Source of the DNA: Acidimicrobiales bacterium
GTDB lineage: Bacteria; Actinomycetota; Acidimicrobiia; Acidimicrobiales; SZUA-35
NCBI GenBank assembly: GCA_965216655.1
Contig: CBDCGP010000016.1
Coordinates: forward strand, 4,031-68,030
Length of the DNA: 64,000 bases
Reading direction: 5' to 3'
Part shown: in pieces, positions 5,472 to 41,198 of the stretch
How positions within the stretch are numbered: position 1 is the first letter of the stretch
Layout: each line of letters starts with the position of its first letter
Program-made: the position numbers and the translations under genes
The notes under the pieces: model-generated
Told to the model about the DNA's origin: nothing
Seen by the model: only the letters and a program-made list of their open reading frames with translations
The model's database searches: none

Positions 5472-6212
5472 TCACTGGAGGCTTCGGGTGGCGCCGCCGT
5501 CGACAGCCAGTGCCTGACCGGTGAGAAATCGCGCATGTTCGGAGCAGAGGAAGGCGACGATCCGCCCGAAGTCCTGCGGATCGCCCAACATGTTGGCCGG
5601 TACTGTTTCCGCCAGTTCGTCGATGTTGTCATAGATCGATCTGAGCCGGTCGGTGAGGTGAAGGCCGGGCTGTATCGAGTTGACGGTGACGCCGTCACCT
5701 GCGACCTCCCGGGCCGTCGTCTTGAGGAAGGCGGTGAGGCCGGCGCGGGCGGTGTTGGAGAGGATCAGACGGTCGATCGGCTCCCGAACCGAGGTGGAGG
5801 TGATGGCCACGACCCGACCCCAACCTCGCTCCTGCATGGCCGGCACGAACCGTTTGCACAGGTCGACGGTCGGTAGGAGGTTGAGGTCGACGGCATCGGC
5901 GTAGGCATCGAAGTCGGTCGACGCGAAGTTCCCGGCCGGCGGTCCACCGCCGTTGGCGATGATGATGTCGATGTGGCCCAGCGCGTCCTGCGCCTCGTCC
6001 ATCATCGACCGACGGCCGGCCAGATCGCTGACGTCGGCGGCAATCGTGACGGCTCCGGGAACGGACTCGGCCGCGGTCGCCAGCTTGTCCTCGGATCTGG
6101 ACGACAACGCCACCGTCACCCCCTCGGCCGCCAGCGCCTGGGCGCAGGCCAATCCCAGTCCAGCCGATGCCCCTGTCACCAGCGCGGTCCGTCCGTTGAT
6201 ACCGAGATCCAT
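5472..6212 (-). CDS. short-chain dehydrogenase/reductase (SDR)
   Basis: TALVTGASAGLGLA Rossmann motif and typical SDR length. Confidence 0.9.
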   Translation of the reverse strand: MDLGINGRTALVTGASAGLGLACAQALAAEGVTVALSSRSEDKLATAAESVPGAVTIAADVSDLAGRRSMMDEAQDALGHIDIIIANGGGPPAGNFASTDFDAYADAVDLNLLPTVDLCKRFVPAMQERGWGRVVAITSTSVREPIDRLILSNTARAGLTAFLKTTAREVAGDGVTVNSIQPGLHLTDRLRSIYDNIDELAETVPANMLGDPQDFGRIVAFLCSEHARFLTGQALAVDGGATRSLQ

Positions 6213-6219: not shown

Positions 6220-7017
6220 TCAGGACGCTGGTTCGAGCGAGGTGGTGACGGTGCCGAGCGGCCCGAAGTCGGCCTCGACCCGGTCGCCGGGCCCGATCGC
6301 CTTCATGGCCCCGAGGGAGCCGGTCATCAACACGTCACCGGCTCGCAGCGGGATACCGCGGGCCGACAGGGTGTCGGCCAGCCAACGGGCGGCGTTGAGC
6401 GGATGATGGAGGCAGTCCGAGCCAACACCGGTGGTCACCTCGGTTCCGTTGATCGACATCGTCATGGGCACGGTCCGCAGATCGAAGTTGTCGAGCGTGA
6501 CCGGCCGCCCACCGAGGACGTAGAGCCCACAACTGGCGTTGTCGGCGACCGTGTCGACGATGGTGATGTCCCAGTTGGCGATGCGGGAGTCGACGATCTC
6601 GATCGACGGTAGGGCATACGCGGTGGCGGCGATGATGTCGTTGAACGTGTGCCGACCGTGGTCGAGGTCGCGGTCGAGTATCAGGGCCACCTCGGCTTCC
6701 GCCCGAGGCTGGATGAGCCGACCGGTTTCGATCGGAACGCCATCGCCGTACTCCATGTCGGCGAACAACGTGCCGAAGTCGGGCTGGTCGACTCCGATCA
6801 TGTCCATGACCGCCTTGGCCGTGACGCCGATCTTGCGGCCGCTGACCCGGCGCCCGGCGGCGATGTCGGCTTCGGTGTTGAGGTCCTGGATGGCGTAGCC
6901 GACGTCGATGTCGGAGTCGGTTCCGACGATGGATCGGATCGGATCGATGGCGGTCAACGATTCCGACGCCTTGCGGAGCGCCAGGGCCGCCTCCTCGATG
7001 AGGTTCTGTTCAACCAT
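6220..7017 (-). CDS. 2-keto-4-pentenoate (2-oxopent-4-enoate) hydratase family (MhpD/XylJ-like)
   Basis: GRKIGVTAKAVMDMIGVDQPDFGTLFADMEYGDG and RAEAEVALILDRDL are typical of MhpD. The MVEQ start at 7017 overlaps the upstream tautomerase stop. Confidence 0.85.
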   Translation of the reverse strand: MVEQNLIEEAALALRKASESLTAIDPIRSIVGTDSDIDVGYAIQDLNTEADIAAGRRVSGRKIGVTAKAVMDMIGVDQPDFGTLFADMEYGDGVPIETGRLIQPRAEAEVALILDRDLDHGRHTFNDIIAATAYALPSIEIVDSRIANWDITIVDTVADNASCGLYVLGGRPVTLDNFDLRTVPMTMSINGTEVTTGVGSDCLHHPLNAARWLADTLSARGIPLRAGDVLMTGSLGAMKAIGPGDRVEADFGPLGTVTTSLEPAS

Positions 7018-7278: not shown

Positions 7279-8061
7279 TCAGATGGCGGTGACGGACACG
7301 TCGCCCAGTACGGAATATCGGGCCGTGGCCTGTGTGCCGGCGGTGAACGGTTTGGCGTCGGTGACGGCTCCGGCGAGGACGTGCCAACCGGCTTCGAGCT
7401 TTAGGCCGGCTTTGCCGACGTGGTTGGCCAGATGAGCGACACACGTCGCGGGGTCGCCGAGTAGCGCCGCACCGGTCGCCTCGCCGACCTGCTCGCCGTT
7501 CAGATCGAACCAGCAGTCGATGGTGGCCAGATCCTGATCGCGGGGGCCGATTCCGTCGCTGCCGAGCACCACCCGGGCGGCGGAGGTGTTGTCGGCGATG
7601 ACGTCGGGCAGGGTGAAGGAGAAGGCCTCGTAGCGGGAGTCGATGATCTCGATTCCGCCGACCACCGTCGCCGTGGCGTCGAGCACATCATCCGCCGTGA
7701 CGCCCGGACCGGCCAAGTCCTCGGCCAGCACGAAAACCAGCTCGGGTTCGCACCGCGGGTGGATCAACTCGTCGAGGGCGACCTCACCCCCGCTGGCCAC
7801 CACGGTCGAGGCCGGTACCCAGCCGTAGACGGGCTCCGAAACGCCCATCTGTTCCTGTTTGGCCACGGAGGTCAGACCGAGTTTGGCCCCCGCCATGGTG
7901 TCTCCCCGTCCCAGTTGGAGTTCCAACAGGGCGGCCTGGATGGCGTAGGCGTCGTCGATCGACAGTTCGTCGACCTGCTTGGTGATGGCCTGGAGTTCTC
8001 GTCGTTCGTCGACACCGGCGGCCAGATAGGCGGCCCAGTTGGCGTGGTCGATTGTGGTCAT
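7279..8061 (-). CDS. 4-oxalocrotonate decarboxylase / 2-oxopent-4-enoate hydratase family (XylI/MhpD-like)
   Basis: AGAKLGLTSVAKQEQMGVSEPVYGWV ... RCEPELVFVL. Paralogous to 6220..7017. Confidence 0.8.
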   Translation of the reverse strand: MTTIDHANWAAYLAAGVDERRELQAITKQVDELSIDDAYAIQAALLELQLGRGDTMAGAKLGLTSVAKQEQMGVSEPVYGWVPASTVVASGGEVALDELIHPRCEPELVFVLAEDLAGPGVTADDVLDATATVVGGIEIIDSRYEAFSFTLPDVIADNTSAARVVLGSDGIGPRDQDLATIDCWFDLNGEQVGEATGAALLGDPATCVAHLANHVGKAGLKLEAGWHVLAGAVTDAKPFTAGTQATARYSVLGDVSVTAI

Positions 8062-8078: not shown

Positions 8079-8861
8079 GTGGATGGACGGGTGCCCGGCG
8101 AGTTGACTGGTGCCGTGGACCATTCGCTCGAGGAACTGAATGATCGCGCCGTGCCGGGCCGGGAGCGACACCGTATCGGTCGCTGGGTGCTGCGTGCCGA
8201 TCGCGGCGCAACAGACCGCGCCAACAGCGTATGGCCGAGCGGTCATCCCGGCCAATCGCTCATGGCCGCGGTCGATGACGTCGAAGCCTGGTACCGGGCC
8301 CGCGGCCTGCGTCCGTGCTTCATGCTGTACGGCGGTGCCGACACGGGCCTCACTGCTGAGCTCGACGGTCGCGGCTATGTGGCCCACAGCCACACCCTGG
8401 TGTTGACCGGTGCGCTCGAGACGGTGATGGCCGAGCTGGACGCCGCGGGGGACGTGTCGCCATGGACGGTAACCGTCGAGGCCGGGCCGAGCACGGCGTC
8501 GAGGGCGCTCATGGGCGACGACGACCGTATGGCCGAGGTGACGGCCACAGCGCTCGACCAGCGATTCGTGACCGTGCTCGACAAGACCGGGGAACTCCTC
8601 GGCGGCGGCTTCACCACGATCGACGGACCGTGGTGCGGTCTGTTCGCCATGAAGACGGTGCCTTCCGCTCGCCGCCGGGGTGTGGCGTCGGTCGTCATGA
8701 TCGAGTTGGCTCGCGCCGCCACGGCCATTGGAGCGACACAGGCTTGGCTTCAGGTGGCTGTCGACAACTCCGCCGCCGTTGCCCTGTATCGACGGGCCGG
8801 GTTCGGTGACTCGAACCACTACCACTATCGGGCCGCCCCCGAACGGGAGCGGTCCCGGTAG
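8079..8861 (+). CDS. GNAT family N-acetyltransferase (two-domain type)
   Basis: WVLRADRGATDRANSV N-domain and C-terminal acetyl-CoA site RRRGVASVVM...AVALYRRAGF. The start is uncertain (GTG 8079). Confidence 0.7.
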   Translation: MDGRVPGELTGAVDHSLEELNDRAVPGRERHRIGRWVLRADRGATDRANSVWPSGHPGQSLMAAVDDVEAWYRARGLRPCFMLYGGADTGLTAELDGRGYVAHSHTLVLTGALETVMAELDAAGDVSPWTVTVEAGPSTASRALMGDDDRMAEVTATALDQRFVTVLDKTGELLGGGFTTIDGPWCGLFAMKTVPSARRRGVASVVMIELARAATAIGATQAWLQVAVDNSAAVALYRRAGFGDSNHYHYRAAPERERSR

Positions 8862-8907: not shown

Positions 8908-10170
8908 TCAGGTTTCGGACAGGTTCTGGCGGTTGGCCTCGGCGTTGCGGTGCAGCTGTTTCATCTCGTCGGCCTGTGGGCTGTAGCGCATCGATCCGTT
9001 GTCGATCCAGTCGATGGCGAACTCCGCACCGCGGCCGAACTTCGAGCGCTCCAGCGGCAGCTTGATGACATCGTGAGGTTCGCGCACGACGGCGACCGGC
9101 GGGTCGTCACCGTTGCGCACGGCGTCCATGCCCTCGCGGTACATCCGCCGGCATGCCACCACACCGACGTCGCTCTTGGTCAGCTTCTCGTTGGTGCGGT
9201 CGGCGACGTCGCCCTGGGTGACCCAGGCCATGATGTCCTGACCCTCGATGTAGTCGACGATGAAGGTGCCGTCATCACGTTTCCACTGATACTCGTAGTC
9301 GACGGTCGGCGGATTCTCGGGTAGCTCGGCCCCGTCGGGGGCGTGCACGGTGTAGAAGAGCATCCAGGTGTGGGTGTCGTCGATCGGCACCCGGATCTGC
9401 ATCTGGTAGACACCGTTGCCGCCGACCCACATGCAGTAGGGGAAAACGAGCGGATGTCCGATCTTCCAGTCGTCGTCGTCCTCGCTCTGGCCCTCGAGCA
9501 GGCGGCGCTTGATTATGCCGTGCTCGAAGGGATCGAACGCGACCTTCTCGTGTTTGTTGCCGCCGAACGAGCCGGGCATCGGTGTGCCCTGCTGCTCGGC
9601 GATGAACTCGAAATAGTTTCCGTGGAGAGCCTCGACGTGGTAGGGGTCGACGGCGTTCTCCATGATCTGGAGCCAGCTGCACGGCAGGACGGAGTGCCCG
9701 ATGTCTCGGATCCCGTCCATGACGTAGGCCTCGTAGCGGGGGAGCTCCGGAGCGGGATCCTTCCCGATGTAGGCCCAGATCAGACCGCCCATCTCCCTGG
9801 CCTGTCCCGCCGGGATGCCGCAACTCTCACGGAACTTGGGGGAGGACCCGGGTTCGGCCAGGATGTCGGTGCAGTTGCCGCCGGTGTCGAACTTCCAGCC
9901 GTGGTAGCCGCAGCGGAGCCCGTCGGGTTCGACGATTCCGTAGACCATCGAGGCCCCACGGTGGGGGCACCGCTCGGCGACGATGCCATAGCCTCCGTCG
10001 CCGGTCTTGAACACGGCCCAGTTCTCACCGAGCAGCCGGGCCTTCCGGACCGGGAACTCGTCGAGTTCACGGGTGATCGCCACCGGGTACCAGTAGTGGC
10101 GGAGGAGCTCGCCCATCGGTGTGCCCGGCCCGACCTGAGTGAGCTCGTCGTTCTGTTCTTGGGTGAGCAT
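8908..10170 (-). CDS. Rieske [2Fe-2S] non-heme-iron oxygenase, alpha-only (phthalate/KshA-like class)
   Basis: CPHRGASM...CGYHGWKF Rieske motif and NAVDPYHVEALHG mononuclear-iron motif. No beta subunit, ferredoxin or reductase lies adjacent. Confidence 0.9.
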   Translation of the reverse strand: MLTQEQNDELTQVGPGTPMGELLRHYWYPVAITRELDEFPVRKARLLGENWAVFKTGDGGYGIVAERCPHRGASMVYGIVEPDGLRCGYHGWKFDTGGNCTDILAEPGSSPKFRESCGIPAGQAREMGGLIWAYIGKDPAPELPRYEAYVMDGIRDIGHSVLPCSWLQIMENAVDPYHVEALHGNYFEFIAEQQGTPMPGSFGGNKHEKVAFDPFEHGIIKRRLLEGQSEDDDDWKIGHPLVFPYCMWVGGNGVYQMQIRVPIDDTHTWMLFYTVHAPDGAELPENPPTVDYEYQWKRDDGTFIVDYIEGQDIMAWVTQGDVADRTNEKLTKSDVGVVACRRMYREGMDAVRNGDDPPVAVVREPHDVIKLPLERSKFGRGAEFAIDWIDNGSMRYSPQADEMKQLHRNAEANRQNLSET

Positions 10171-10269
10171 GATGTCCTCGAGTTCTGTTCGTCGGCTACG
10201 TGTCTTGGGATTCTGTGCCTGTCAGCTCCAGGTTCTTGGAGCTGACAGGCGCAGAACGTGGTGGATGGG

Positions 10270-12081
10270 TCAGTCGAGCACGGTGACCGATCCGGTCGAA
10301 CCGTCGACCCGGATCATCTGCCCGTTCTTGATCTGCGAGGTTCCGAATCCGGTGCCGGTCACCGCGGGGATGCCGTATTCGCGGCAGACGATGGCGGCGT
10401 GGCTCATCATCCCGCCGATGTCGGTCACGCACGCTCGGATCTTCGGGAAGACGGGGGCCCACGACGGAGCGGTGATCGGGGCGACGAGAATCTCGCCGTC
10501 CTCGATGTCGCCGATGTCGTCGGGGCTGAATATCAAACGGGCCGGACCCTCGGCCGTGCCGGGGGAGGCGGCCATGCCGGAGATGCCGCCGTCGCCGTCG
10601 GCGCCGAGCCAGCCGGCCACGGAATCCGACGTGATGCCCCACAACATGATGGTGAACGGCTCGGTGACCACGGCGGGCGGGTCACCGAGAGCCTTCGGCG
10701 GCTTCCACTCCTCCATCTTGGCCACGATCTCGCGTCGACGGGCGATCCGCGGTGGCCAGTACTTCGAGCCCCGATTCGGCGCGTTGACGGCCCACGACGA
10801 GTACACGTCGAACAGCACCTCGTCCATCTCGTCGCGACGGATGTAGAAGACGTCGTCGACCGCACCGAGGATCCCCTCCTTCACGAGTGTGGCTCCCAGC
10901 TCCCGGAGCTTGGCCCAGATCACCGACATGGTCCAGTGCTCGATGTAGAAGTTGTGGTTCTCCACGTAGGGGAACACAACCCGGGCCAGGCCGAGCTTCT
11001 CCTGGAACGCCTGCCGGTCCTCGTCGGTTTCCAGCAGCTCCCCATACTCCGACACCACACGATCTCGTTCGGCGGTGATGGCGTCGATCGGTCGGGAGAT
11101 GTCCTCGCCGGCCTCGATCTTCGTGATGTAGTCGGCGATGAAGGCGTACGGGATTTCCGGGTGGTCCTTCCACGTCTTGTCGTAGTGGTAGAAGCCGGTG
11201 CCGGCACTGAAGTTGAACCACGGGTCCTCGACCGCGTTCCAATGGGCTTCGACGGCGGTACCAGCGAGCTTCGACTGGATGCCGGCCACGTCGTCCGGGT
11301 TGTCGAACACCCGGGCCAACCCGGCGTCGACGGCCATCTGAGCCATGACCTTCAGCTCCTCGTTGGGGCGGAACAGGTCGACCTCGATCCCGGCGACCAT
11401 CTTGGCGATGCCGAGATCGGGGATCGACGGGAACGCCTCCTTGCAGAACCCGAAGAAGTCGAGGTAGGCGGCGTAGCCGAGGTTGAGGAACTCGAAGTGG
11501 TACTCCCAGACCCGCAGAATCAGATCCTTGAACCGGTGGTAGTCCGATTGCAGGCGGGAGCCCGAACCCGATCCGAGCCCTTCGGTGATGACCGACGGGT
11601 CCTCCATCTCGGGTAGCGGGGAGAAGTCGAGACCCTCGATCTCGGAGATGGTGGCTTTGATCTTCCCCAACCAGTTCTCGTAGAGATCCCCCCAGTTCAT
11701 GAAGTAGTGGCCGGCCCGCTCCATGAAGTCGGGGACCCGGCTCTCGATTCGGGCGCCGTCCTCGATCGTGACCGGGGTGAGGTAGGGGTAGCCGTAGAGC
11801 ACCCGGAAGTCGATGCCGTCGGCCGGAGGGATCCGATAGTGCCGAGAGTTGAACTGGCTCAGCGCCGAGATGGCCAGCTCCAGGAAGACCGAGTCCCACG
11901 GGGTCATGGCCCGACCCCAGTGCATGGAATCCCAGAACCAGAACCGGCTCTCCTCGTACTCCTTCAGGTCCTCGGAGAAGACGACGCTGTACGGATACAG
12001 CTCCTCCCACCCATCAACGCCTTCGGGTCCTTCGACCCCGAACGGGCTTGGAAATCGCTTCTCGGACGGTGTTTCTGACAT
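10270..12081 (-). CDS. PEP-utilising enzyme with C-terminal mobile phospho-histidine domain (phenylphosphate synthase alpha-like / split PEP synthase)
   Basis: C-terminal ...GEILVAPITAPSWAPVFPKIRACVTDIGGMMSHAAIVCREYGIPAV swivel-His domain. It is preceded by a ~500-aa substrate domain with no ATP-grasp. Confidence 0.8.
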   Translation of the reverse strand: MSETPSEKRFPSPFGVEGPEGVDGWEELYPYSVVFSEDLKEYEESRFWFWDSMHWGRAMTPWDSVFLELAISALSQFNSRHYRIPPADGIDFRVLYGYPYLTPVTIEDGARIESRVPDFMERAGHYFMNWGDLYENWLGKIKATISEIEGLDFSPLPEMEDPSVITEGLGSGSGSRLQSDYHRFKDLILRVWEYHFEFLNLGYAAYLDFFGFCKEAFPSIPDLGIAKMVAGIEVDLFRPNEELKVMAQMAVDAGLARVFDNPDDVAGIQSKLAGTAVEAHWNAVEDPWFNFSAGTGFYHYDKTWKDHPEIPYAFIADYITKIEAGEDISRPIDAITAERDRVVSEYGELLETDEDRQAFQEKLGLARVVFPYVENHNFYIEHWTMSVIWAKLRELGATLVKEGILGAVDDVFYIRRDEMDEVLFDVYSSWAVNAPNRGSKYWPPRIARRREIVAKMEEWKPPKALGDPPAVVTEPFTIMLWGITSDSVAGWLGADGDGGISGMAASPGTAEGPARLIFSPDDIGDIEDGEILVAPITAPSWAPVFPKIRACVTDIGGMMSHAAIVCREYGIPAVTGTGFGTSQIKNGQMIRVDGSTGSVTVLD

Positions 12082-12121
12082 CTGACGATGCTCCCCTTTA
12101 TCAGTTGGACTGTGACTTGAA

Positions 12122-13204
12122 CTATGAGTTGTTGTCTTTGTTGTGCATGGGTGACAGCAGCGTGGACACGATCGAACGCATCGGGTCTCCGGTCTTCGCC
12201 CCCACCGCCTTCCTCGGTTTCCGGGACCACACCGTCTCCGGCCTCGACTGCAGCATCACGACGTTCTCACCGGGCGGCAGATGCCGGTCGATGGCCCACT
12301 CGACGTCTTGCGGACAGCCGTAGTGCTTCTCGGCCCGACGGGCCAGGATCGTGATGGCCACCAGATCCTCATCGGAGACACACGAGGAGTTGCGCCGATC
12401 GGCATCGACCTCGGTCTTCTCCACCACACCGCCATCGGTCAACCGGTACTCGATCGCCTTGTCGGAGATCTCGCGGTGGACCACCTCCCGAAGAACCTTG
12501 TCGACCAGGAAATTGTCGGGTGTGACCTCGCCCGACACCACCGCCTCGCCCAGTCCCCACGAGGCATCGATGGCCACCTGTGAGCGATCGCCGTTGGTCG
12601 GGTTGAGCGTGAACGCCACCCCTGACGCAATCGGTTCCACCATCTTCTGTACGCCGACCGACATGGCGATTGCCTGGTGGAGATACCCCATGGAATGCCG
12701 GTAGGCGATCGCCCGGTCGGTGAACAGCGACGACCAACACTTCTTGACGTTCTCGACGACGTTGTCGGCCCCGACGATCCAGAGGTACGTGTCCTGCTGC
12801 CCGGCGAACGATGCGTCGGGCAGGTCCTCGGCCGTGGCCGACGACCGGACGGCGACCGGCACGTCGTCGACATCACAATGGCGACACAGTGCTTCGTACG
12901 CCTCGACGATGTCGCTCGCCACCTGGTCGGGCACTGGATTCTGCTCGATCCGGTCCCTGATCTTGGCCGAGATCTCCCGGTTGGCGGCCACGTCGTCGTG
13001 GTCGATCGATCGCAGGAGATCGTTGACGTCGTTGACCAGGGTCTCGTCGTTCCAGATCAACCCGTATGCGTTGGTGGTGACCGCGAAGCCCGGCGGCACC
13101 GGAAGCTCGGCCCGCATCATCTCGCCCAGGCTCGAGTTCTTCCCGCCGACGAACGGCTTGTGATCCGCCTCGTAGCGATCGAACCACACGATGTGATCAG
13201 TCAT
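12122..13204 (-). CDS. PEP/pyruvate-binding (PPDK_N, ATP-grasp) domain protein (phenylphosphate synthase beta-like)
   Basis: VGGKNSSLGEMMRAELPVPPGFAVTT and SSATAEDLPDASFAGQQDTYL are typical of the N-terminal nucleotide-binding part of PEP synthase. The MTDHIVWF start at 13204 was chosen. Confidence 0.8.
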   Translation of the reverse strand: MTDHIVWFDRYEADHKPFVGGKNSSLGEMMRAELPVPPGFAVTTNAYGLIWNDETLVNDVNDLLRSIDHDDVAANREISAKIRDRIEQNPVPDQVASDIVEAYEALCRHCDVDDVPVAVRSSATAEDLPDASFAGQQDTYLWIVGADNVVENVKKCWSSLFTDRAIAYRHSMGYLHQAIAMSVGVQKMVEPIASGVAFTLNPTNGDRSQVAIDASWGLGEAVVSGEVTPDNFLVDKVLREVVHREISDKAIEYRLTDGGVVEKTEVDADRRNSSCVSDEDLVAITILARRAEKHYGCPQDVEWAIDRHLPPGENVVMLQSRPETVWSRKPRKAVGAKTGDPMRSIVSTLLSPMHNKDNNS

Positions 13205-13315
13205 GGTTGCGTCGACCTTTCTCGCGGTGAAGGATCGGATTGTCGGTAGCTCCTTGGCCCAATCGATGACGGGGCAGGCTTCGCACATGTTCGTCTCCGC
13301 TGCTCTCGCGCCCGC

Positions 13316-14566
13316 TCACGTGACGCTCGGGGGCCCGGTCAGCTCGGACGGATCGGCGAAGCCCGACCAGTCGTCGATGACCGACCATTGTGGTAGCTGA
13401 TCGATTCGGGGGACCTTGATCTCCTGGACACGGTTGCGATAGGCCACGGTGGCGTCGGCGCCGCCCGTGGACTCGGTGCCCGGGCGCGCCGGGGGCGCCA
13501 GCAACTTGATGCGAACGTGTTCGGTGTTGTAGGGCTCGCCAGGGTCGTAACCCAGCGCCGACACCGCCACCGCCCGGATACAGCCGGAGTGGGTGGCGAT
13601 CGCCAGACGGGCACCGGGGAAGTCGTCGGCCAGCGAGTTGATCCCAGCCCAGAACCGGCGAACGCACATCGCCGGCGGCTCGAAGTGGACGAGCGGGATC
13701 GTGAGCCAGTGCTGGATCGGGTCGCCGCCACCCTGCTGGGTACGCCAGAAGCGATCCATCTCCACCAGCCACAACGGGCGATCACTGCGGGCCGACCGTT
13801 CGAACTGCTCGAGCAGGGCGTGGTACTCGCGGAAAGCGGCGGTCACGTCCTTCAAACCGTCGGGGGCCGCGAACCCGAAGTTGCGGAACTCGGCCATCGG
13901 TTCCGGCTCGACGATGGTGATCTCCTTCTCGTACTGCTCGAGCCCGTCGGCCAGGCCGCGGCGGATCTGCTCGGACGTCTCCCGGGCCCGATTGGTGGGG
14001 GCATGGCGGAAGACGACGGTCTCGCCGGAACGAATCCGGCGGGCCAGGGTTCGCCCGTAGCTGTGGGACTGCCAGGCGCCCTGAGGGGTGAGCCCGGAAT
14101 CCGTCGAGTAACCCTGGGTTTCGCCGTGGCGGATCAGGTAGACGTCGTTGGTGACCTGCCGGAACGCCTCCGGCGGCGCCGAGATCTCCTTGTTGCGATT
14201 GTCCTCGGTCAGCGACTGCTGGACGGTGAGGTCGGCTCGCTGCCACAGCGGCTTGTCGCTGTCCTCGGGACGCTGATGCGCCGTTCGCTCCCGGAATCGC
14301 TGCAGGTACAGCGGTGCGCCGTCCGGCCGGGCCGGGCCGTCGAGGCCATCGACCGGTGTTGCCGTGCCGTTTCCGGCGTGTGCGCCCGATTCGGGGGCCG
14401 TTTCGAGGTCGCTGCCGGTCGACTGCTGTCGCTCCCGGTAACGGGCCAGATACATCGGCGCCTCGTACCGGTCGGTCACGCGCTTGCGCACGCCGACCGG
14501 CTGGGCCGACTGGCCGTTGCGCCTCGGAGTGGCGGGTCCTGGATTGGGTTGCTTCTCGTCTGCCAT
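13316..14566 (-). CDS. histidine phosphatase (phosphoglycerate mutase-like) family protein with long low-complexity N-terminal extension
   Basis: VYLIRHGETQGYS (RHG catalytic motif) and a later IATHSGCIR. The N-terminal ~130 aa carries a duplicated APxYLxRxRER motif. Confidence 0.75.
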   Translation of the reverse strand: MADEKQPNPGPATPRRNGQSAQPVGVRKRVTDRYEAPMYLARYRERQQSTGSDLETAPESGAHAGNGTATPVDGLDGPARPDGAPLYLQRFRERTAHQRPEDSDKPLWQRADLTVQQSLTEDNRNKEISAPPEAFRQVTNDVYLIRHGETQGYSTDSGLTPQGAWQSHSYGRTLARRIRSGETVVFRHAPTNRARETSEQIRRGLADGLEQYEKEITIVEPEPMAEFRNFGFAAPDGLKDVTAAFREYHALLEQFERSARSDRPLWLVEMDRFWRTQQGGGDPIQHWLTIPLVHFEPPAMCVRRFWAGINSLADDFPGARLAIATHSGCIRAVAVSALGYDPGEPYNTEHVRIKLLAPPARPGTESTGGADATVAYRNRVQEIKVPRIDQLPQWSVIDDWSGFADPSELTGPPSVT

Positions 14567-14591
14567 TGCGTTTGATCCGTTCCCCGGTGGT

Positions 14592-15509
14592 CTAGGAGTG
14601 CACCGTCATGAATCGTTGGTCGACCTGTCCGCGGTAGCAGAACACGGCTCGGCCCATCTCGGACTCGGTCCAGGTGGTCGGCTCGTCGTCGGGGTCGAAC
14701 CAGTAGCCGCCGGTGTAGACCTCGTTTCGGTTGCCCGCCGGGTCGAAGAAGTAGAGGCCACAGCCCCGGGTGGCGCCGTGGCGGGTCGGGCCGGCGTCGA
14801 TCTCCACGCCGTGGTGGGCGCAGGTGTCGGCGGCGTGCTTGAGGTCGCTCCACTCGTCGACCCAGTAGGCCACGTGGTGAAAGCCGCCGTTGGGGCCGGT
14901 GAGGAACGCGATGTCGTGGGGTGTGTGGGTCCGCTCCAGGAAGGTGGTGAGCTGGTGACCATCGTCGGCCACGATCTGCTCGGTCAGGCGAAATTCGAGC
15001 ACGTCGGTGAAGAACCTGGTGACGCCGTCCACGTCCTCGCAGAGCAGGAAGATGTGGTCGATCCGAGGCGGGTGGATGCCGACGAGGCCGTCTGGTCGGG
15101 GAGGGGGGTTGATGAGCGACAAACCGTTGCCGACCTGACCCTGCCCGCACTCCAGATCGATGACGTGTCCGCTCGGCCCGACGAACCGGGCGATCCGCCC
15201 GGAGGCGACATCGAGCTCGCCCGGGGCGTGGTGGCTGACGGTGATCCCCGCCGTCTCGACCTTGGCCGCCAGTCGTTCGAGTTCGGATTCCTCCATGACC
15301 TTGAAGGCCAGCGCGTTGAGCCCGTACGTGGGAGAGGCGGTGAGGATCAGGGAGTGGTGCTGGTGCTCGTCCCAACCCTTGAGGTAGGCCTTGTCGGTGG
15401 TGCGACCGGTCTCGACGAGGCCGACCACCTCGACGTAGTAGGCGAGTGCCAGCTCGAGGTCGGGCACCCGGACCTCGGCGTGGGAGAGTCGAAGAATTCC
15501 GTCAGTCAC
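14592..15509 (-). CDS. extradiol ring-cleavage dioxygenase (catechol 2,3-dioxygenase type, two-domain VOC)
   Basis: ILRLSHAEVRVPDLELALAYY, HDIAFL and HHVAYWVD motifs. About 305 aa. Confidence 0.9.
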   Translation of the reverse strand: MTDGILRLSHAEVRVPDLELALAYYVEVVGLVETGRTTDKAYLKGWDEHQHHSLILTASPTYGLNALAFKVMEESELERLAAKVETAGITVSHHAPGELDVASGRIARFVGPSGHVIDLECGQGQVGNGLSLINPPPRPDGLVGIHPPRIDHIFLLCEDVDGVTRFFTDVLEFRLTEQIVADDGHQLTTFLERTHTPHDIAFLTGPNGGFHHVAYWVDEWSDLKHAADTCAHHGVEIDAGPTRHGATRGCGLYFFDPAGNRNEVYTGGYWFDPDDEPTTWTESEMGRAVFCYRGQVDQRFMTVHS

Positions 15510-15521
15510 GCTTCCTACTCC

Positions 15522-16430
15522 CTACGTGTGGACCGTCGCGAAACGTTCGTTGATGACGCCCTCGTAATAGAAGACCGCTCGTCCGGCCTCCTCGTCGGTC
15601 CACGTGATGGTCGGGAAATCCGGGTCCGGCCGGTAGCCGCCCGAGAACACCTCGTTGCGTGTTCCCATCGGGTCGAAGAAGTAGATCGTGTTGCCCCGAG
15701 TGAGGCCGTGACGAGTGGGCCCGATGTCGACGCTCACCCCGTTGTAGGCCAGGATGTCGGCGGCCCTGCGCACGTGATCCCAGTCATCGAGCCAGAACGA
15801 GAAGTGGTGCAGCGCGCCGTTCGGTCCCTGTACGAAGGCGATGTCGTGGGGTTTGGCCGAGCGTTCGAGGAAGGCGATCATCTGATGGCCGCCACCGTCG
15901 AGCAGCTGCTCGGTCAATCGGAAATCGAGCACGTCGGTGAAGAAGCGGGCGACGGCCGGGACCTCCTCGGCGTGGACGAGGAGGTGGTCGATCCTCGGTG
16001 GTGCGATCCCGACGAGGTCGGCGACCATCGGCGGGGGATTGACGAGCGGGAGCCGCCCGCCGACCTTCTCGACGTCGGCCACCAGCTCCATCTCGTGGCC
16101 GGAGGTCAGCTCGAAACGAATCGACTCGCCCTGACCGATCTCCTCACCCTTGGAGATGCGCTGCACCGGATGGCCGGCGTTCTCGATTCGTGACTCGAAG
16201 TGGTCGAGGTCGTCCTCGTGCTCGACTTTGAACGAGAACCGATCGAGTCCGACCCTGGGGTCGTGGCGGATGGCCAGACAGTGGTGATCTCGCTCGTCCC
16301 AGCACTTGAGGAAGATGCGATCGTCGGTGCGTTCGGTGATGTCGAGACCCATCACCTGGGTGTAGTACGCAGCCGCCAGTTCCAGGTCGGGGCAATGAAT
16401 GTCGACGTGGCTGAGGCGGAGGATTCCCAT
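15522..16430 (-). CDS. extradiol ring-cleavage dioxygenase, tandem paralogue
   Basis: ILRLSHVDIHCPDLELAAAYY, HDIAFV and HHFSFWLD. Colinear with 14592..15509. Confidence 0.9.
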   Translation of the reverse strand: MGILRLSHVDIHCPDLELAAAYYTQVMGLDITERTDDRIFLKCWDERDHHCLAIRHDPRVGLDRFSFKVEHEDDLDHFESRIENAGHPVQRISKGEEIGQGESIRFELTSGHEMELVADVEKVGGRLPLVNPPPMVADLVGIAPPRIDHLLVHAEEVPAVARFFTDVLDFRLTEQLLDGGGHQMIAFLERSAKPHDIAFVQGPNGALHHFSFWLDDWDHVRRAADILAYNGVSVDIGPTRHGLTRGNTIYFFDPMGTRNEVFSGGYRPDPDFPTITWTDEEAGRAVFYYEGVINERFATVHT

Positions 16431-16524
16431 GTGACCGACGCTACATCAACCGTTTCTCCTAGTGGGAAACTATTCCGTATGCAGGGACGACACGGTGGGT
16501 GGACCGTGGCTACAGTTGTCGGCC
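16431..16524. promoter_or_regulatory. divergent promoter/operator region between dioxygenase operon and IclR regulator
   Basis: 94-bp intergenic region with short inverted repeats (gtttc-N9-gaaac; ggaa-acta-ttcc). Inferred from position only. Confidence 0.35.
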
Positions 16525-17298
16525 ATGTCGGGGAATCGGCTCACTTCGGTAACCAATGCCGTTCGGCTGATCAAGGCGTTCACCCCGACCCGAACCACGT
16601 GGGGCGTGTCCGAGCTGTCCAGGGAGCTGGGCATCTCGAAGTCGTCGGTGCACCGGATACTGGCCACGCTGACCGACGAGGGCATGCTGGAACAGGAACC
16701 GGAGACCGGCCGCTACCGGCTCGGGCTCGCGATGTACGAGCTGGCCGCTGCCGTGCCGTCGCAGCGCGATCTGCACGAGGCCGTGCTCCTGCCGATGACC
16801 GAGCTGCGCAACCGTACCGGGGAGACCGTGCAGGTCGGTGTGCTCGACGGCATTCACGTCGTCTACATCGAGCGGCTCGACAGCCCGAACACGCTCCGGC
16901 TGTTCACCGACGTCGGTCGACGCAACGAAGGGCACTGCACCGCCACCGGAAAGGCGCTGCTCGCCCACCTGCCGGTGGAACGCCGAGACCGGATCCTGCG
17001 TGAAATGACCCTCACCAAACGCACGGCCTACACGATCACCTCGCCCCGGAGGTTCAGGGAGGAACTCGAGAAGATCAGGGCGCAGGGCTATGCCGAGAAC
17101 CGCCACGAATCGGAGGTCGGAGTTGTGTCGGTTGCCGCCCCGATCCGCGACTCCGGGGGTGCGATCATCGCCGCCATCAGCGTGGCCGGGCCGGCCGAAC
17201 GAGTTGATCCCCTGCGCAGTCAGATGGCGCAAGCCGTGCAGCGGGCCGCCGGACTGGTTTCGCACCGTCTGGGTTACCGCGGGGGCGGCGAACCGTGA
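16525..17298 (+). CDS. IclR family transcriptional regulator
   Basis: N-terminal wHTH (VSELSRELGISKSSVHRILATL) followed by an IclR effector domain. The ATG at 16525 was chosen. Confidence 0.9.
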   Translation: MSGNRLTSVTNAVRLIKAFTPTRTTWGVSELSRELGISKSSVHRILATLTDEGMLEQEPETGRYRLGLAMYELAAAVPSQRDLHEAVLLPMTELRNRTGETVQVGVLDGIHVVYIERLDSPNTLRLFTDVGRRNEGHCTATGKALLAHLPVERRDRILREMTLTKRTAYTITSPRRFREELEKIRAQGYAENRHESEVGVVSVAAPIRDSGGAIIAAISVAGPAERVDPLRSQMAQAVQRAAGLVSHRLGYRGGGEP

Positions 17299-17321: not shown

Positions 17322-17987
17322 GTGAAAGACCCTGATATCGATGTTCTGCTGCTCGACTTCGGCGGCGTGTGCCTGCTCAACCCGGTCGAACTTCACCGCA
17401 AGACCGAGCGCGAGCTCGGCCTGGCCGCCGGGTCGCTCGACTGGATGGGGCCTCTTGACCCCGACAGCGATCCGCTCTGGAAGCGGATGATCGCCGGCGA
17501 CGGACTCACCGAGCGCGACTACTGGCACCAACGGGCGGCCGAACTCGGCGAGGCCGGCAGGCGGGATCTCACCCTTCGGGACTACATGGCCCTCATCTAC
17601 AATCCGCCGTCCGACGACCTCGTGCGTCCCGGGGCGAAACGGGTGGTGGCCGACGCGCAGAGCGCCGGCTATCAGGTTTCGGTTCTGACCAACGATCTCC
17701 GAGACTTCCACGGTCCCGACTGGGAGCACGGGATCGGCCTCCTCCAGAAGATCGACCATCTCGTCGACTGCTCCGACACCGACATCCTCAAACCCGACCC
17801 CCGGGCGTTCGAGCGGGCGGTCGAGATCATCGGCGCCCCTGCCGAGCGAGTGTTGTTCGTCGACGACCAACCGCTCAACGTGACCGGCGGGTCCGACTGC
17901 GGTCTTCAGGCGATGTGGTTCGACATCGCCAACGCCGAACGATCATGGGACGACGTGGCCACGCGCCTCGGTCTGGTCGCCGGCTGA
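17322..17987 (+). CDS. HAD superfamily hydrolase (subfamily IA-like)
   Basis: Motif I LLLDFGGV, motif II VLTND, KPD, and motif IV LFVDDQ. Confidence 0.8.
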   Translation: MKDPDIDVLLLDFGGVCLLNPVELHRKTERELGLAAGSLDWMGPLDPDSDPLWKRMIAGDGLTERDYWHQRAAELGEAGRRDLTLRDYMALIYNPPSDDLVRPGAKRVVADAQSAGYQVSVLTNDLRDFHGPDWEHGIGLLQKIDHLVDCSDTDILKPDPRAFERAVEIIGAPAERVLFVDDQPLNVTGGSDCGLQAMWFDIANAERSWDDVATRLGLVAG

Positions 17988-18802
17988 TGGCCACCGTCGG
18001 CGATTCCGGAGTGCTCGACGCTGAGACCGTGGCCACAGTGGCCGCCGAACTGTGGCGAGCCGAGCAGTCCGGGCAGGCGGTCGACCTCCCCTCGAACCGA
18101 TTTCCCGGATTCACCTGGGCCGACGCCCGGTCGGTGGCCCGAGCGGTCGACGGCCTTCGTGCCGCCGACGGACACCAGCTGATCGGCTACAAGCTCGGTT
18201 GGACCTCGGCCGTGATGCGGGAGGCGCTCGGGATCGACCGGCCGAATTGGGGAACGTTGTGGGACTACCAGATGGTCGACGGGAGCGACCGGGCGACCGT
18301 GGACATTGCGGCGTTGCGCCACCCCAAGGTCGAACCCGAATTGGTCTACCGCGGCGGTCGTGACCTGGTCGGCTCCGACGTCGATCGTGCCGACGTTCTC
18401 GCAGCGGCCGACGGCTGGGCGCTCGGCCACGAGATCGTCCATCCCCGATACCCGGACTTCGGCTTCACATGGCTCGACAACACCGCGGACAATTCGTCGT
18501 CCCAAGCCGTCGTGATCGGTTCCTTCGCAGCGCTCGACGGTGATCCTGCCGGCGTCGAGATCACCTTCGGCAACCGGCGGGAGGTCCGCACCGGATCCGG
18601 TGCCGCCGCCATGGACTCGCCGGCCGACGCGGTCGCCTGGCTCGTGCGATCACTCCATGGCGAGGGCGGCGGGCTCCGGGCGGGCCACATCGTGTTGACC
18701 GGGGGTCTGGCCAAGCCGTTCGACCTGGTGTCGGGAGATCACTACCATCTCGAAGCCGATGGACTGGATTCGGTCGGCTTCGATGTGACCGCGACCCGAT
18801 GA
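17987..18802 (+). CDS. MhpD/XylI-family hydratase/decarboxylase paralogue
   Basis: LIGYKLGWTSAVMREALGIDRPNWGTLWDYQMV. The start ATG overlaps the HAD stop (TGATG). Confidence 0.75.
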   Translation: MATVGDSGVLDAETVATVAAELWRAEQSGQAVDLPSNRFPGFTWADARSVARAVDGLRAADGHQLIGYKLGWTSAVMREALGIDRPNWGTLWDYQMVDGSDRATVDIAALRHPKVEPELVYRGGRDLVGSDVDRADVLAAADGWALGHEIVHPRYPDFGFTWLDNTADNSSSQAVVIGSFAALDGDPAGVEITFGNRREVRTGSGAAAMDSPADAVAWLVRSLHGEGGGLRAGHIVLTGGLAKPFDLVSGDHYHLEADGLDSVGFDVTATR

Positions 18803-19665
18803 ACACCACACCGAACGTCGATCCCGGGCACCAACGTCATGTGGAGGCGGCTCGTCTGCTGCTCGACGCCCGACGGACCGGGCAAACCTTGGCTGCGCTG
18901 CCCGGCGATCTTCGCCCCGACACCTTCGCCGACGGCTACCGGATTCAGGATGCACTGATCGATCTGGACGGCCGGTCGATCGGACTGATCAAGGTCGGTT
19001 GCACCACCATCGAGACGCAGCGGATCATGAACCTGGCCGAACCGATCGGCGGTTGCCTGGCCGCCGAGGCGGTGCACCGGTCCGGCGCGACCGTGGAGGT
19101 GGCGACGTTCCACCACCCTCCGCTGATCGAATGCGAGTTCGCCATGCGGGTCGCCGTCGACATCACCCCGGACCGAACGTTCGCCACGGTCGACGACGCG
19201 ATCTCGGTGGCCGACGCAGTCGCTCCGGCACTGGAACTGGTCGACGGCCGATACGACACCCAGCTCGGCATCGACGGACCGAGTGTCGTGGCCGACAACT
19301 CGATGGCCACCGCCGCCGTGCTCGGTTCCGCCGTCGGGCTCGGAGACGGCGGCTTCGATCCTGCCGCCCTGGCCTCGACCGTGGTGCGACTGGTGGCCGA
19401 GGCAAATGCTGACGGAGGGCCCGAGGAGCTGGTCACGGAGGGATTGGGGGCCAACGTACTCGGTGACCCCTGGCGGTCGTTCCACTGGGCGCTGGGGCAT
19501 CTGGCCGCTCGAAAGCGGCCGGTCGCAGCCGGCACGTGGATCATCACCGGCAGCTGTTCGGGTGCGCCGGCCGCCCCGCTCGATCGCCGTCTGACCGCCC
19601 GGTTCGCCGGCCTCGGCGAGGTGTCGGTCACGATCACCGGGAGCCCGGCAGAGGATTCGAGGTAA
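18799..19665 (+). CDS. MhpD/XylI-family hydratase/decarboxylase paralogue (divergent)
   Basis: GYRIQDALIDL...LIKVGCTT...PLIECEFAM. ATGA overlap with the upstream gene. Confidence 0.7.
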   Translation: MNTTPNVDPGHQRHVEAARLLLDARRTGQTLAALPGDLRPDTFADGYRIQDALIDLDGRSIGLIKVGCTTIETQRIMNLAEPIGGCLAAEAVHRSGATVEVATFHHPPLIECEFAMRVAVDITPDRTFATVDDAISVADAVAPALELVDGRYDTQLGIDGPSVVADNSMATAAVLGSAVGLGDGGFDPAALASTVVRLVAEANADGGPEELVTEGLGANVLGDPWRSFHWALGHLAARKRPVAAGTWIITGSCSGAPAAPLDRRLTARFAGLGEVSVTITGSPAEDSR

Positions 19666-19721
19666 AAAGATTCGTGGCAAAAGGTGAGGCTTGGCCGCGC
19701 CGTTTGCTTCAATTGGTGCCG

Positions 19722-20180
19722 ATGCCTGAATCCGAACCCCAGCCGAGCGAGCCACTGGTCAAGCCCCGAGGTGCGTTTCCCCACCTCCGGCGGGCGGGGG
19801 GAGTCGTCTACGTGTCGGGAACGAGCGCGCGACGGCCTGACAACACGATCGCCGGCGCGTCGGTCGATGAGATGGGAACCACCGACCTCGACATCGGCGT
19901 GCAGACCACGGCCGTACTCGAGAACATCGAGCGGCTGTTGGGCACGGTCGGGCTCGACCGCAGCCACCTCGTCGACGCCACCAGCTTCCTGGTCAACATG
20001 AACGACTTCGGCGGCTACAACCGGGCCTGGGCGGCGTTCTTCGACGGTGGGGAGGCTCCGGCCCGAACCACGGTGGCCGTCCACCAGCTCCCGCATCCCC
20101 ACCTGCTGATCGAGATCAAGGCCACGGCTGTCGATCCCGCGTCCGTTCAGACGAGCGACGGCGATGGAGGTTCCGCCTGA
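19722..20180 (+). CDS. RidA/YjgF family enamine/imine deaminase (2-aminomuconate deaminase-like context)
   Basis: GVVYVSGTSARRP...TTAVLENIERLL...ARTTVAVHQLPHPHLLIEIKATA. The ATG at 19722 was chosen. Confidence 0.85.
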   Translation: MPESEPQPSEPLVKPRGAFPHLRRAGGVVYVSGTSARRPDNTIAGASVDEMGTTDLDIGVQTTAVLENIERLLGTVGLDRSHLVDATSFLVNMNDFGGYNRAWAAFFDGGEAPARTTVAVHQLPHPHLLIEIKATAVDPASVQTSDGDGGSA

Positions 20181-24068: not shown

Positions 24069-24097
24069 GGTTGCAGAGCTCCTTGCTGGACGCGGTG

Positions 24098-25801: not shown

Positions 25802-25862
25802 GGGCTCGGTGGGATCTCCCAATATTCTACACTTCCATAGCGTCACGTCAAGATGATGTGGT

Positions 25863-28287: not shown

Positions 28288-28416
28288 TGCGAAGGGTCCC
28301 TTCGAGCTCGGGCAACGAGCCTTCGACACTAGACGATCTCTGGTTGGCTGCGCGCCCAACCCTGCTGTCATTCACGGGTGAGAACGACCACAGCAAAGTG
28401 CTGGATCGCCAGCACG

Positions 28417-40946: not shown

Positions 40947-41040
40947 GACGAAGGCCGCTGACAGGGTGTTGTCCCTGGTCAGCGGCCTGTGGAGTGGTAC
41001 GCCCCCTGGGACTTGAACCCAGAACCTGCGGATTAAGAGT
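40947..41040. repeat. proximal direct repeat of island (terminator hairpin + 3' part of intact tRNA-Lys)
   Basis: Aligns with 31133..31226 (see that entry). Confidence 0.8.
40953..40987 (-). terminator. hairpin immediately 3' of tRNA-Lys
   Basis: GGCCGCTGAC-AGGG-tgttgt-CCCT-g-GTCAGCGGCC. The U-tract is weak. Confidence 0.45.
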
Positions 41041-41070
41041 CCGATGCTCTGCCAATTGAGCTAGAGGCGC
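40995..41070 (-). tRNA. tRNA-Lys (anticodon CTT), CCA encoded
   Basis: The reverse complement GCGCCTCTAGCTCAATTGGCAGAGCATCGGACTCTTAATCCGCAGGTTCTGGGTTCAAGTCCCAGGGGGCGTACCA folds as a cloverleaf by hand. Confidence 0.9.
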
Positions 41071-41121
41071 TTGTAGTACGACGGCCCGATCGAGGCTGAC
41101 CCCGGTCGGCGGCGTTCGCAT

Positions 41122-41198
41122 TGGGTGACCGAGGGGATTCGAACCCCCGACATCCAGGATCACAACCTGGCGCTCTAACCAACTGAGCTACGGCCACC
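41122..41198 (-). tRNA. tRNA-His (anticodon GTG) with genomically encoded G-1
   Basis: The reverse complement is G-GTGGCCGTAGCTCAGTTGGTTAGAGCGCCAGGTTGTGATCCTGGATGTCGGGGGTTCGAATCCCCTCGGTCACC. The extra 5' G opposes C73. CCA is not fully encoded. Confidence 0.85.

Follow-up and report, generated by a model that had tools for sequence, protein, structure and literature searches.

A split dikinase-type gene pair in an aerobic Rieske oxygenase and meta-cleavage operon of Acidimicrobiia: a proposed route of phenol catabolism via a phosphate ester

In the aerobic Cre and Hpe pathways, the successive action of a kinase, a modifying enzyme and a phosphatase on a phenolic substrate has been established experimentally (PMC12167813, PMC9618137, PMC9549646). 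The principle of aerobic phosphorylation, modification and dephosphorylation is therefore already known, the steps being carried out by CreHI, CreJ and CreD in one case and by HpeHI, HpeCBA and HpeD in the other. Here we analyze a stretch of 64,000 nucleotides (in the following called the window) from an Acidimicrobiales bacterium (GenBank assembly GCA_965216655.1, contig CBDCGP010000016.1, positions 4,031 to 68,030 of the forward strand), in which a single string of genes encodes a putative two-component kinase, KinB and KinA, together with a histidine phosphatase, a Rieske oxygenase and two catechol 2,3-dioxygenases, C23O_a and C23O_b. The original prediction for this DNA had suggested a phosphorylation/dephosphorylation step within an aerobic pathway; in view of the Cre and Hpe precedents this idea is less surprising than was then implied.

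The Cre system for p-cresol of Corynebacterium glutamicum and many Actinomycetes is aerobic as well and resembles the locus in its two-component phenolic dikinase, its oxygenase acting on the phosphorylated phenol, the phosphatase acting after it and the adjoining IclR-type regulator. It relies, however, on a P450 with ferredoxin and ferredoxin reductase (CreJEF) and on the HD-domain protein CreD, whereas a Rieske oxygenase and a histidine phosphatase are encoded here. Furthermore, the Cre dehydrogenases CreG and CreC lead to 4-hydroxybenzoate, whereas the locus contains neither of them and instead two catechol 2,3-dioxygenases and a meta pathway. When the window and 80 related loci were searched by tblastn with the proteins of the cre cluster on plasmid pRB98 (see below), no homologue of the ferredoxin, the ferredoxin reductase or the HD-domain protein was detected; one unrelated P450 and scattered weak matches to short-chain dehydrogenases/reductases (SDR) were obtained.

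The Hpe and Acv systems, which act on 4-hydroxyacetophenone and acetovanillone, follow the same logic of kinase, modification and phosphatase, and KinB resembles HpeI while KinA has a fold like that of rifampin phosphotransferase (RPH). They differ in the biotin-dependent carboxylase HpeCBA, in a CoA ligase/hydrolase and in the NagD-type phosphatase HpeD, the phosphatase of the locus belonging to the histidine phosphatase superfamily. Neither a biotin-dependent carboxylase nor a CoA ligase/hydrolase is present in the annotated neighbourhood of the related locus L081 or among the conserved families of the 80 loci. PpsABC of Thauera and Aromatoleum is similar, by description, in its split into subunits of ~40 and ~70 kDa and in the Ser-His pair at the catalytic site (PMC12167813). 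This system serves the anaerobic carboxylation of phenol and includes PpsC and a UbiD-type phenylphosphate carboxylase, whereas the locus has neither and the neighbouring enzymes all need O2; in Pfam searches no PpsC-like, UbiD-type or UbiX-type family was found among the neighbours in the window or in L081. A combination of a Rieske oxygenase, a histidine phosphatase and meta-cleavage enzymes with a phenolic dikinase was not described in the literature searched.

We consider it moderately probable that the locus is an IclR-controlled operon for the aerobic catabolism of a small monocyclic phenol via a temporary phosphate ester, a phenol whose identity and site of hydroxylation we infer from the encoded enzymes. 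The chances appear about even that Acidimicrobiia thereby follow a third mechanistic branch, the first of its kind, in which a phosphate handle directs ring hydroxylation by a Rieske enzyme, a new subfamily of histidine phosphatases takes part and the product is fed into meta-cleavage.

Gene order and its conservation

The gene string and its divergent regulator comprise the following features:

15522-16430, minus strand: C23O_a, XylE-like type I extradiol catechol 2,3-dioxygenase, 302 aa; first gene of the operon
14592-15509, minus strand: C23O_b, second catechol 2,3-dioxygenase paralogue, 305 aa
13316-14566, minus strand: histidine phosphatase, divergent member of branch 1, 416 aa; PF00300, E = 7e-13
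12122-13288, minus strand: kinB, PPDK_N ATP-grasp subunit, 388 aa from the first ATG; PF01326, E = 3e-113
10270-12081, minus strand: kinA, substrate-binding and swivel phospho-His subunit, 603 aa; PF00391 at residues 526-597
8908-10170, minus strand: Rieske oxygenase, alpha subunit only, phthalate-dioxygenase family, 420 aa; PF00355 and LigXa_C
16462-17298, plus strand, probable start 16525: divergent IclR regulator; HTH_IclR and IclR_C, E = 1e-47

All six minus-strand open reading frames (ORFs) were thus found at the coordinates and in the order given by the original prediction, with gaps of 12, 25, 27, 40 and 99 bp between them, and the divergent IclR gene was recovered on the plus strand by domain search. 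Alignments of KinB to its relatives begin at residue 29 of the 388-aa ORF, which makes position 13204 the probable true start and agrees with the 360-aa ATP-grasp protein proposed before. The lack of a gamma-subunit-like gene, a carboxylase, a ferredoxin and a reductase noticed at the time also holds on a wider scale: neither the scanned ORFs of the 64-kb window nor the flanks of 10 kb to either side in the 80 related loci yielded a carboxylase, a PpsC-like gene, a ferredoxin or a reductase.

Conservation of the gene order was assessed in two sets of loci. The first consists of 80 genome loci retrieved with KinA at 62-90% identity and searched by tblastn with the window proteins; for the second, the phosphatase served as bait and yielded 77 new loci, in which neighbours were counted only where the contig has room for them. 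In the KinA set, a divergent IclR gene followed by C23O_a, C23O_b, the phosphatase gene, kinB, kinA and the Rieske gene is present in essentially every sufficiently long locus, including the tandem pair of dioxygenases. The phosphatase-bait loci contain a catechol 2,3-dioxygenase gene upstream of the phosphatase gene in 71 of 71 cases, kinB in 63 of 68, kinA in 63 of 67 and the Rieske gene, located after kinA, in 63 of 64. The gene order is therefore kept very strongly in the 80 and the 77 related loci. Nearly all related loci of sufficient length share the arrangement, which is far beyond chance and represents a real, selected operon.

Overall, some 150 Acidimicrobiia-type genomes share the gene string, with identities of 58-90%. 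The nearest loci stem from metagenome-assembled genomes (MAGs) of Acidimicrobiales with 90% identity in KinA, and a look-up of the exact KinA sequence in public assemblies gave no match. Relatives of the phosphatase occur in 169 species-representative genomes, all of them Acidimicrobiia, Nitriliruptoria or unclassified Actinomycetota MAGs. The gene set annotated as "PEP-utilizing enzyme / histidine phosphatase family protein" extends over at least 169 species-level genomes and more than 1,000 clusters at 90% identity. Acidimicrobiia are an abundant, almost uncultured class found in soils, sediments, sand filters, sponges and sea water.

Kineosporia sp. A_224 (L254, 1987-7630), a cultured actinomycete, does not fit this pattern. 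It carries an IclR gene and kinB, kinA and Rieske genes in this order, whose products are 56%, 58% and 58% identical to those of the window, with no phosphatase or dioxygenase gene within the 8 kb examined. This strain is a possible experimental model.

Several further arrangements were seen in distant loci. In Kineosporia sp. A_224, a small ORF with a zinc-ribbon-like CxxC...CxxC pattern follows the Rieske gene, and a hydratase/decarboxylase homologue lies further on. A cysteine-rich ORF of about 98 aa (RFCPxCG...CxxCGW...VIGHExEH) stands directly after the Rieske gene in a distant clade of Acidimicrobiia (8 loci, for example L053 12998-13294 and L062 13153-13449) and in Kineosporia; it does not occur in the window and is no recognizable ferredoxin. 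A Bradyrhizobium MAG (L215) contains the order kinB-kinA-SDR-Rieske-HAD with a Rieske protein of 30% identity, and in two Acidimicrobiia loci (L075 16646-19021 and L077 at about 19439) a second, distant kinB-like gene (40-41%) is located a few kb downstream of the operon.

The split kinase and its relatives

The division into proteins of ~40 kDa and ~67 kDa, which the original prediction had likened to phenylphosphate synthase, is indeed the architecture of PpsAB, CreHI and HpeHI (PMC12167813). According to Pfam, KinB contains PF01326 alone and KinA contains PF00391 alone (residues 526-597), while PF02896 is absent. The earlier description of KinA as recognizable only at its swivel domain is correct as far as Pfam is concerned, but the N-terminal ~500 aa are covered both by the uncharacterized PRK08296-type models of NCBIfam, which KinA matches over its full length (NF006150, 795 bits), and by the RPH fold. 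In a Foldseek search with the AlphaFold2 model of KinA (pLDDT 86), the RPH structures 5fbt, 5hv1 and 5fbu were the top matches, with E ~1e-16 over 602-617 columns, whereas PPDK, PEP synthase and enzyme I matched only at the swivel domain of ~120 aa. The ATP-grasp, substrate-binding and swivel-His domains of RPH are thus reproduced by KinA and KinB together; RPH, however, is a single protein, whereas here two polypeptides of 18-20% identity to it are encoded in a catabolic context. KinB matches the crystal structure of HpeI (9goj) with E = 5e-80 over residues 8-332.

The catalytic histidine of KinA, H561, is located 43 residues from the C terminus in the motif GGMMSHAAIVCRE (in full GGMMSH561AAIVCRE). 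Among 35 homologues G556, G557, M559, S560 and H561 do not vary, and M558 is kept in at least 90%. KinA accordingly has a Met at the position of the regulatory Thr and a Ser before the catalytic His, the signature of phenolic kinases. Both features have been described for PpsA and CreH, whereas in HpeH, which has an RPH-like fold, a Cys precedes the catalytic His (PMC12167813).

For comparison with the Cre system, the cre cluster of Rhodococcus oxybenzonivorans plasmid pRB98 was located by tblastn against plasmids. Its annotation comprises an IclR regulator, a P450, a PEP/pyruvate-binding protein, a PEP-utilizing enzyme, an SDR, a 2Fe-2S ferredoxin, an FAD oxidoreductase, an HD-domain protein and an aldehyde dehydrogenase, and it was identified as the cre cluster because this layout matches the Cre components (PMC9549646). 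KinA shares 52% identity over its full length with the CreH-type protein of pRB98; for KinB and the CreI-type protein the value is 51%. Besides the NCBIfam models, the placement of the kinase draws on this CreH-type orthologue, identified by its gene context, and on the PDB structure of HpeI; among these comparisons, the nearest relatives found by sequence are of the aerobic CreHI type.

A scan for the invariant KinA motif ENHNFYIEHW then yielded an arbitrary selection of loci across many phyla, 116 of them with a KinA match. Among the matches listed, 88 are of the Cre type with a KinA identity of 46-60%, 15 are of the Rieske/phosphatase type (58-75%) and 13 have neither within 8 kb. In a neighbour-joining tree of the kinase, 71 Cre-context sequences form an exclusive clade and 32 Rieske-context sequences another. 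KinA of the window falls outside the CreH clade and groups with the Rieske-context sequences. As the two contexts form separate clades, the kinase is placed next to CreHI as a sister lineage in its own right, with a phylogeny that follows the partner enzymes.

That the kinase pair is instead an ordinary split PEP synthase or an antibiotic-type resistance kinase, functionally unlinked to the meta-cleavage operon, is highly improbable. The best NCBIfam and PDB matches of KinB are N-terminal domains of PEP synthases, and KinA is structurally like RPH. With the PEP-synthase model, however, KinB reaches 377 bits against a cut-off of 598 and KinA 100 bits, and the alignments cover no more than the N-terminal and swivel parts. 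The pair has no PEP/pyruvate-binding domain and carries Met in place of the regulatory Thr. Its genes are located inside the operon with gaps of 27-99 bp, they are found together with the Rieske and phosphatase genes in ~150 genomes down to 58% identity, and their phylogeny follows the catabolic context. The pair thus does not cluster with PEP synthase fragments, in line with the original prediction, which the conserved gene order supports as well; it is closest to the CreHI type. KinA and KinB are homologous to the two-component dikinases of the PpsAB, CreHI and HpeHI kind, from which we infer the corresponding activity.

Oxygenase, phosphatase and ring-cleavage enzymes in the proposed pathway

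In the proposed pathway, KinB and KinA would convert ArOH and ATP to ArO-PO3, AMP and Pi via a phospho-histidine at His561. The Rieske oxygenase would bind the anionic aryl phosphate and hydroxylate the ring ortho to the ester, presumably with a reductase encoded elsewhere. The hydroxylated aryl phosphate would then be hydrolysed by the histidine phosphatase, in analogy to CreD and HpeD, to give catechol or 4-methylcatechol. The two dioxygenases, whose membership in the XylE-type catechol 2,3-dioxygenase family is established, would open the ring, and tautomerase, decarboxylase and hydratase, in relatives together with 2-hydroxymuconic semialdehyde (HMS) dehydrogenase, DmpF and DmpG, would lead on to pyruvate and acetyl-CoA. 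The order of kinase, modification and phosphatase is that of the Cre and Hpe pathways. The 4-oxalocrotonate branch of the meta pathway fits catechol or 4-methylcatechol, which points to phenol- or p-cresol-like compounds; candidate substrates would therefore be phenol, p-cresol or a close analogue. Phosphorylation would probably serve to trap a scarce, membrane-permeant phenol and to provide the oxygenase with an anionic anchoring group.

The best solved relative of the Rieske protein is the phthalate 4,5-dioxygenase (PDO) PDO_KF1 (7fjl), with E = 2e-48 and 30% identity over 354 residues. Further matches in the PDB are the orphan RO_CH34 (7fhr) and the IPDO-like 9ina, while carbazole dioxygenase, NdmA, SxtT and DdmC score much lower. 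The motifs CPH/CGYH, ENAVD-PYH-VEALH and GQD align with C70/H72/C89/H92, D178, H181, H186 and D343 of PDO, so that the ligands of the Rieske cluster, the bridging Asp and the iron site of two His and one Asp are all intact; no gene for a beta subunit adjoins the Rieske gene among the window ORFs. PDO_KF1 differs in its pht gene context and its PDR-type reductase, whereas here the context is that of a kinase and a phosphatase and no PDR-type gene is nearby. Furthermore, Ser179, Ser182, Arg207 and Arg244, with which PDO binds its substrate, are not kept, and a function as phthalate 4,5-dioxygenase proper was therefore ruled out. The residues K206, H207, K221, R222, R223 and H239 are more than 95% conserved among 52 orthologues and fall in the stretch that forms the anion- or carboxylate-binding face of PDO. 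An anionic substrate, for example an aryl phosphate, would be compatible with this basic cluster, and the closest solved relatives all act on anionic aromatics.

The same comparisons bear on a route in which a methoxyphenol such as guaiacol is phosphorylated and the Rieske protein acts as an O-demethylase similar to VanA, LigX or DdmC, giving 2-hydroxyphenyl phosphate and formaldehyde, from which the phosphatase would release catechol. We regard this as distinctly unlikely. The Pfam match to LigXa_C, a weak match to VanA_C and the presence of DdmC and NdmA among the PDB matches speak for it, as does the phosphorylation of guaiacol by the related kinase AcvAB (PMC12624787). However, the demethylase relatives are far more distant than the phthalate dioxygenases (E = 1e-14 versus 2e-48), and the conserved neighbourhood contains no formaldehyde-handling genes.

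The phosphatase exceeds the cut-off for PF00300 (49 bits versus 21.7) and contains the RHG motif at residues 146-148. Since R146-H147-G148, R193 and H326, that is the RHG motif, the second Arg and the C-terminal His, are invariant among 30 homologues, the protein should be catalytically competent. No solved relative was found by a single-sequence search of the PDB, and a profile search returned only 3eoz with a marginal E value of 0.006. Fold matches obtained with the poor structural model are generic (PGM, PGAM5 and PhoE only). Two regions set the protein apart: an almost invariant insert of ~70 residues at about residues 231-298, and an N-terminal extension (residues ~33-100, window 14266-14470) with a twin motif, RYEAPMYLARYRER and APLYLQRFRER. 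The copies share the consensus P(M/L)YLxR(Y/F)RER, are predicted to be helical and are separated by a variable low-complexity linker; this twin motif may be a docking element. The protein is proposed to represent a dedicated new subfamily and, in analogy to the characterized pathways, to function as an aryl-phosphate phosphatase.

The main rival explanation assigns a different role to this protein. The Rieske enzyme would be a true dioxygenase that attacks C1 and C2 (ipso and ortho) of the aryl phosphate, whereupon the gem-hydroxy ester would spontaneously expel phosphate and form catechol directly. Such a reaction would resemble the elimination of sulfite, nitrite, amine or phenolate by other ring-hydroxylating dioxygenases, which is established chemistry, as well as the angular dioxygenation by carbazole dioxygenase. 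The phosphatase would then be accessory, for example in the salvage of excess aryl phosphate or in the control of the phospho-His enzyme. In agreement with this, the best solved Rieske relatives are dioxygenases (PDO, the IPDO-like 9ina and carbazole 1,9a-dioxygenase, the latter with E = 8e-18), a dihydrodiol dehydrogenase is not conserved, and the phosphatase has a weak NCBIfam match to the phospho-histidine phosphatase SixA (E = 0.006). The phosphatase is, however, as strictly conserved as the kinase and is kept beside the Rieske gene even in loci that lack kinB and kinA (see below), which argues that it processes the product of the Rieske enzyme; moreover, in both characterized systems the substrate of the phosphatase is the phospho-intermediate after its modification (PMC9618137). 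Eliminative 1,2-dioxygenation is thus judged unlikely, oxidation of a side chain and O-demethylation even less likely, and ortho-monohydroxylation followed by hydrolysis of the ester is favoured because of this conservation of the phosphatase.

Downstream of the Rieske gene, the window contains three genes of the meta pathway:

7279-8061, longest ORF to 8211, minus strand: 4-oxalocrotonate decarboxylase-like protein of the DmpH/MhpD family; TIGR03218, 239 bits
7010-7264, minus strand: 4-oxalocrotonate (2-hydroxymuconate) tautomerase, 84 aa; NF002571/TIGR00013, E = 5e-11
6220-7017, longest ORF to 7101, minus strand: 2-oxopent-4-enoate hydratase; NF008461, 321 bits; TIGR03220, 259 bits

Both dioxygenases, which are 52% identical to each other, pass the equivalog cut-off of TIGR03211 (C23O_a 364 bits, C23O_b 340 bits, cut-off 320). 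Among solved structures, XylE (1mpy, E = 2e-77) and LapB (3hpv), an enzyme for alkylcatechols, are closest to them, and the alignment shows the His/His/Glu ligands and the signature H-x7-[LI]-Y-FF-D-P-x-G-x3-E in both of them. The decarboxylase lies below the curated cut-off of TIGR03218 (350 bits), its 260-aa form corresponding to the gene call in L081. The tautomerase starts with MP- and thus with the catalytic Pro1, derives its family score from the C-terminal 66 aa and is conserved in relatives. The hydratase, whose gene follows that of the tautomerase in relatives, is likewise under the cut-offs (350 bits for NF008461, 409 bits for TIGR03220). In the 80-locus set, decarboxylase, tautomerase and hydratase genes usually come directly after the Rieske gene, and de novo clustering of the ORFs revealed DmpF in 27 and DmpG in 21 of these loci. 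A pyrogallol route, in which direct cleavage to 2-hydroxymuconate would make HMS dehydrogenase unnecessary, was set aside, as an aldehyde dehydrogenase (Aldedh) gene follows the hydratase gene in about nine relatives.

In detail, the neighbourhood of these genes varies. Relatives carry DmpF/DmpG, some of them also an aldehyde dehydrogenase, after the hydratase gene (L081, 15560-17573); at this place the window has an SDR gene (5472-6212), an arrangement shared only by its two closest relatives. Between the Rieske and the decarboxylase genes, a GNAT acetyltransferase gene is located on the opposite strand (8079-8861), which otherwise occurs only in the two closest relatives.

A more Cre-like course of events, in which the Rieske enzyme takes the place of the P450 CreJ and oxidizes the alkyl side chain of a 4-alkylphenyl phosphate, the phosphatase releases a 4-hydroxybenzyl product and the dioxygenases act later or separately, has a similarly low probability to that of O-demethylation. 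In its favour, the nearest relatives of the kinase are of the CreHI type, the window has an SDR gene downstream, and the phthalate family of Rieske enzymes includes methyl monooxygenases such as TsaM, which acts in this way on p-toluenesulfonate. Against this, alcohol or aldehyde dehydrogenases are not conserved with the operon, the SDR gene being restricted to the closest relatives, genes for 4-hydroxybenzoate or protocatechuate are not present, and two catechol 2,3-dioxygenases and the meta pathway are invariably attached.

A number of observations weigh against the proposed pathway of phosphorylation, ortho-hydroxylation and dephosphorylation. Three genomes of Ilumatobacteraceae/Acidimicrobiaceae possess the intact dioxygenase pair, phosphatase, Rieske and meta genes without kinB and kinA (L140 8001-10309, L147 8001-10626, L151 8001-10312). 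In L140 and L151 the Rieske gene directly adjoins the phosphatase gene, and in L147 a gap of ~390 bp separates the two. Among the matches listed in a search with the closest kinase, no kinAB was found elsewhere in these three genomes, and its absence from them is suggested. With regard to the oxygenase, Ser179, Ser182 and Arg244 of PDO are replaced by Pro, Val and Ile, and the segment containing Arg207 is missing in the Rieske protein, in a region where the confidence of the alignment is low; the case for anion binding is made solely by the basic cluster at the sequence level. Its closest solved relatives are cis-dihydroxylating dioxygenases and not monooxygenases, no dihydrodiol dehydrogenase is conserved with the operon in the 80 loci, and neither in the window nor within 10 kb to either side in the 80 relatives is there a ferredoxin or reductase for the Rieske enzyme. 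The AlphaFold model of the phosphatase is of low confidence (pLDDT 56). Finally, a gene similar to that of HMS dehydrogenase adjoins only about 9 of the 80 loci and is absent from the window.

If the proposed pathway is correct, a new combination of dikinase, Rieske oxygenase and histidine phosphatase would join the few aerobic pathways that phosphorylate phenols. Phosphate would then be able to direct Rieske oxygenases in the way it directs the P450 CreJ, a point of interest for the regioselective biocatalytic hydroxylation of phenols, and a function would be assigned to the gene set annotated as "PEP-utilizing enzyme / histidine phosphatase family protein", which is very widespread. In metagenomes, the presence of pps-like genes is usually taken to indicate anaerobic degradation of phenol; readings of phenol-degrading potential would therefore change.

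Regulatory region and neighbouring genes

Two further features adjoin the operon on the side of its first gene:

16472-16488, no strand assigned: palindrome-like motif ATTCCGTATGCAGGGAC, candidate IclR operator; conserved alignment columns
17322-17987, plus strand: HAD-family hydrolase, adjoining and co-directional with IclR; PF00702, E = 2e-16

The IclR gene is divergent and adjoining in most loci. Since the ATG at position 16525 and the motif upstream of it are conserved, translation of IclR likely starts there, which results in a divergent promoter region of 94 bp. When the intergenic regions of the window and of 16 loci were aligned, a conserved palindrome, GTyCC-N7-GGrAy, became apparent, which is a candidate for the IclR operator; a scan for promoters and terminators gave nothing above chance. 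The HAD hydrolase is present in most loci. Its motif I reads DFGGV and is without the Asp+2 of HAD phosphatases, and it has a weak match, below the cut-off, to a phosphatase family similar to the N-terminal part of epoxide hydrolase; a role as second phosphatase is possible.

The HAD gene opens a series of plus-strand genes (17322-21238) for two further hydratase/decarboxylase paralogues of the MhpD/DmpH family, a RidA-family protein and an Amidohydro_2 protein, the ORFs of which overlap or abut after IclR. The genes for IclR, HAD, the two hydratases, RidA and the amidohydrolase were considered as part of the system, but only IclR and HAD are widely conserved with the operon, and the series as a whole was set aside. 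Further on in the window, phenylacetate-type genes for a PaaA/PaaC-like protein, an enoyl-CoA hydratase-domain protein and a PaaX-family regulator are located at 22653-26771, followed by a sulfatase gene at 26785-28371. Four tRNA genes were found, three of them clustered at 40998-41417 (two on the minus and one on the plus strand) and one at 61642-61713. The regions 50989-55142 and 61764-63950 encode a PhoX-type alkaline phosphatase, a serpin, a CHRD-domain protein and an 847-aa protein that combines bacterial TSP3 repeats with a C-type lectin domain and DUF4214. This set is unusual, has the appearance of secreted proteins and is unrelated to the phenol operon.

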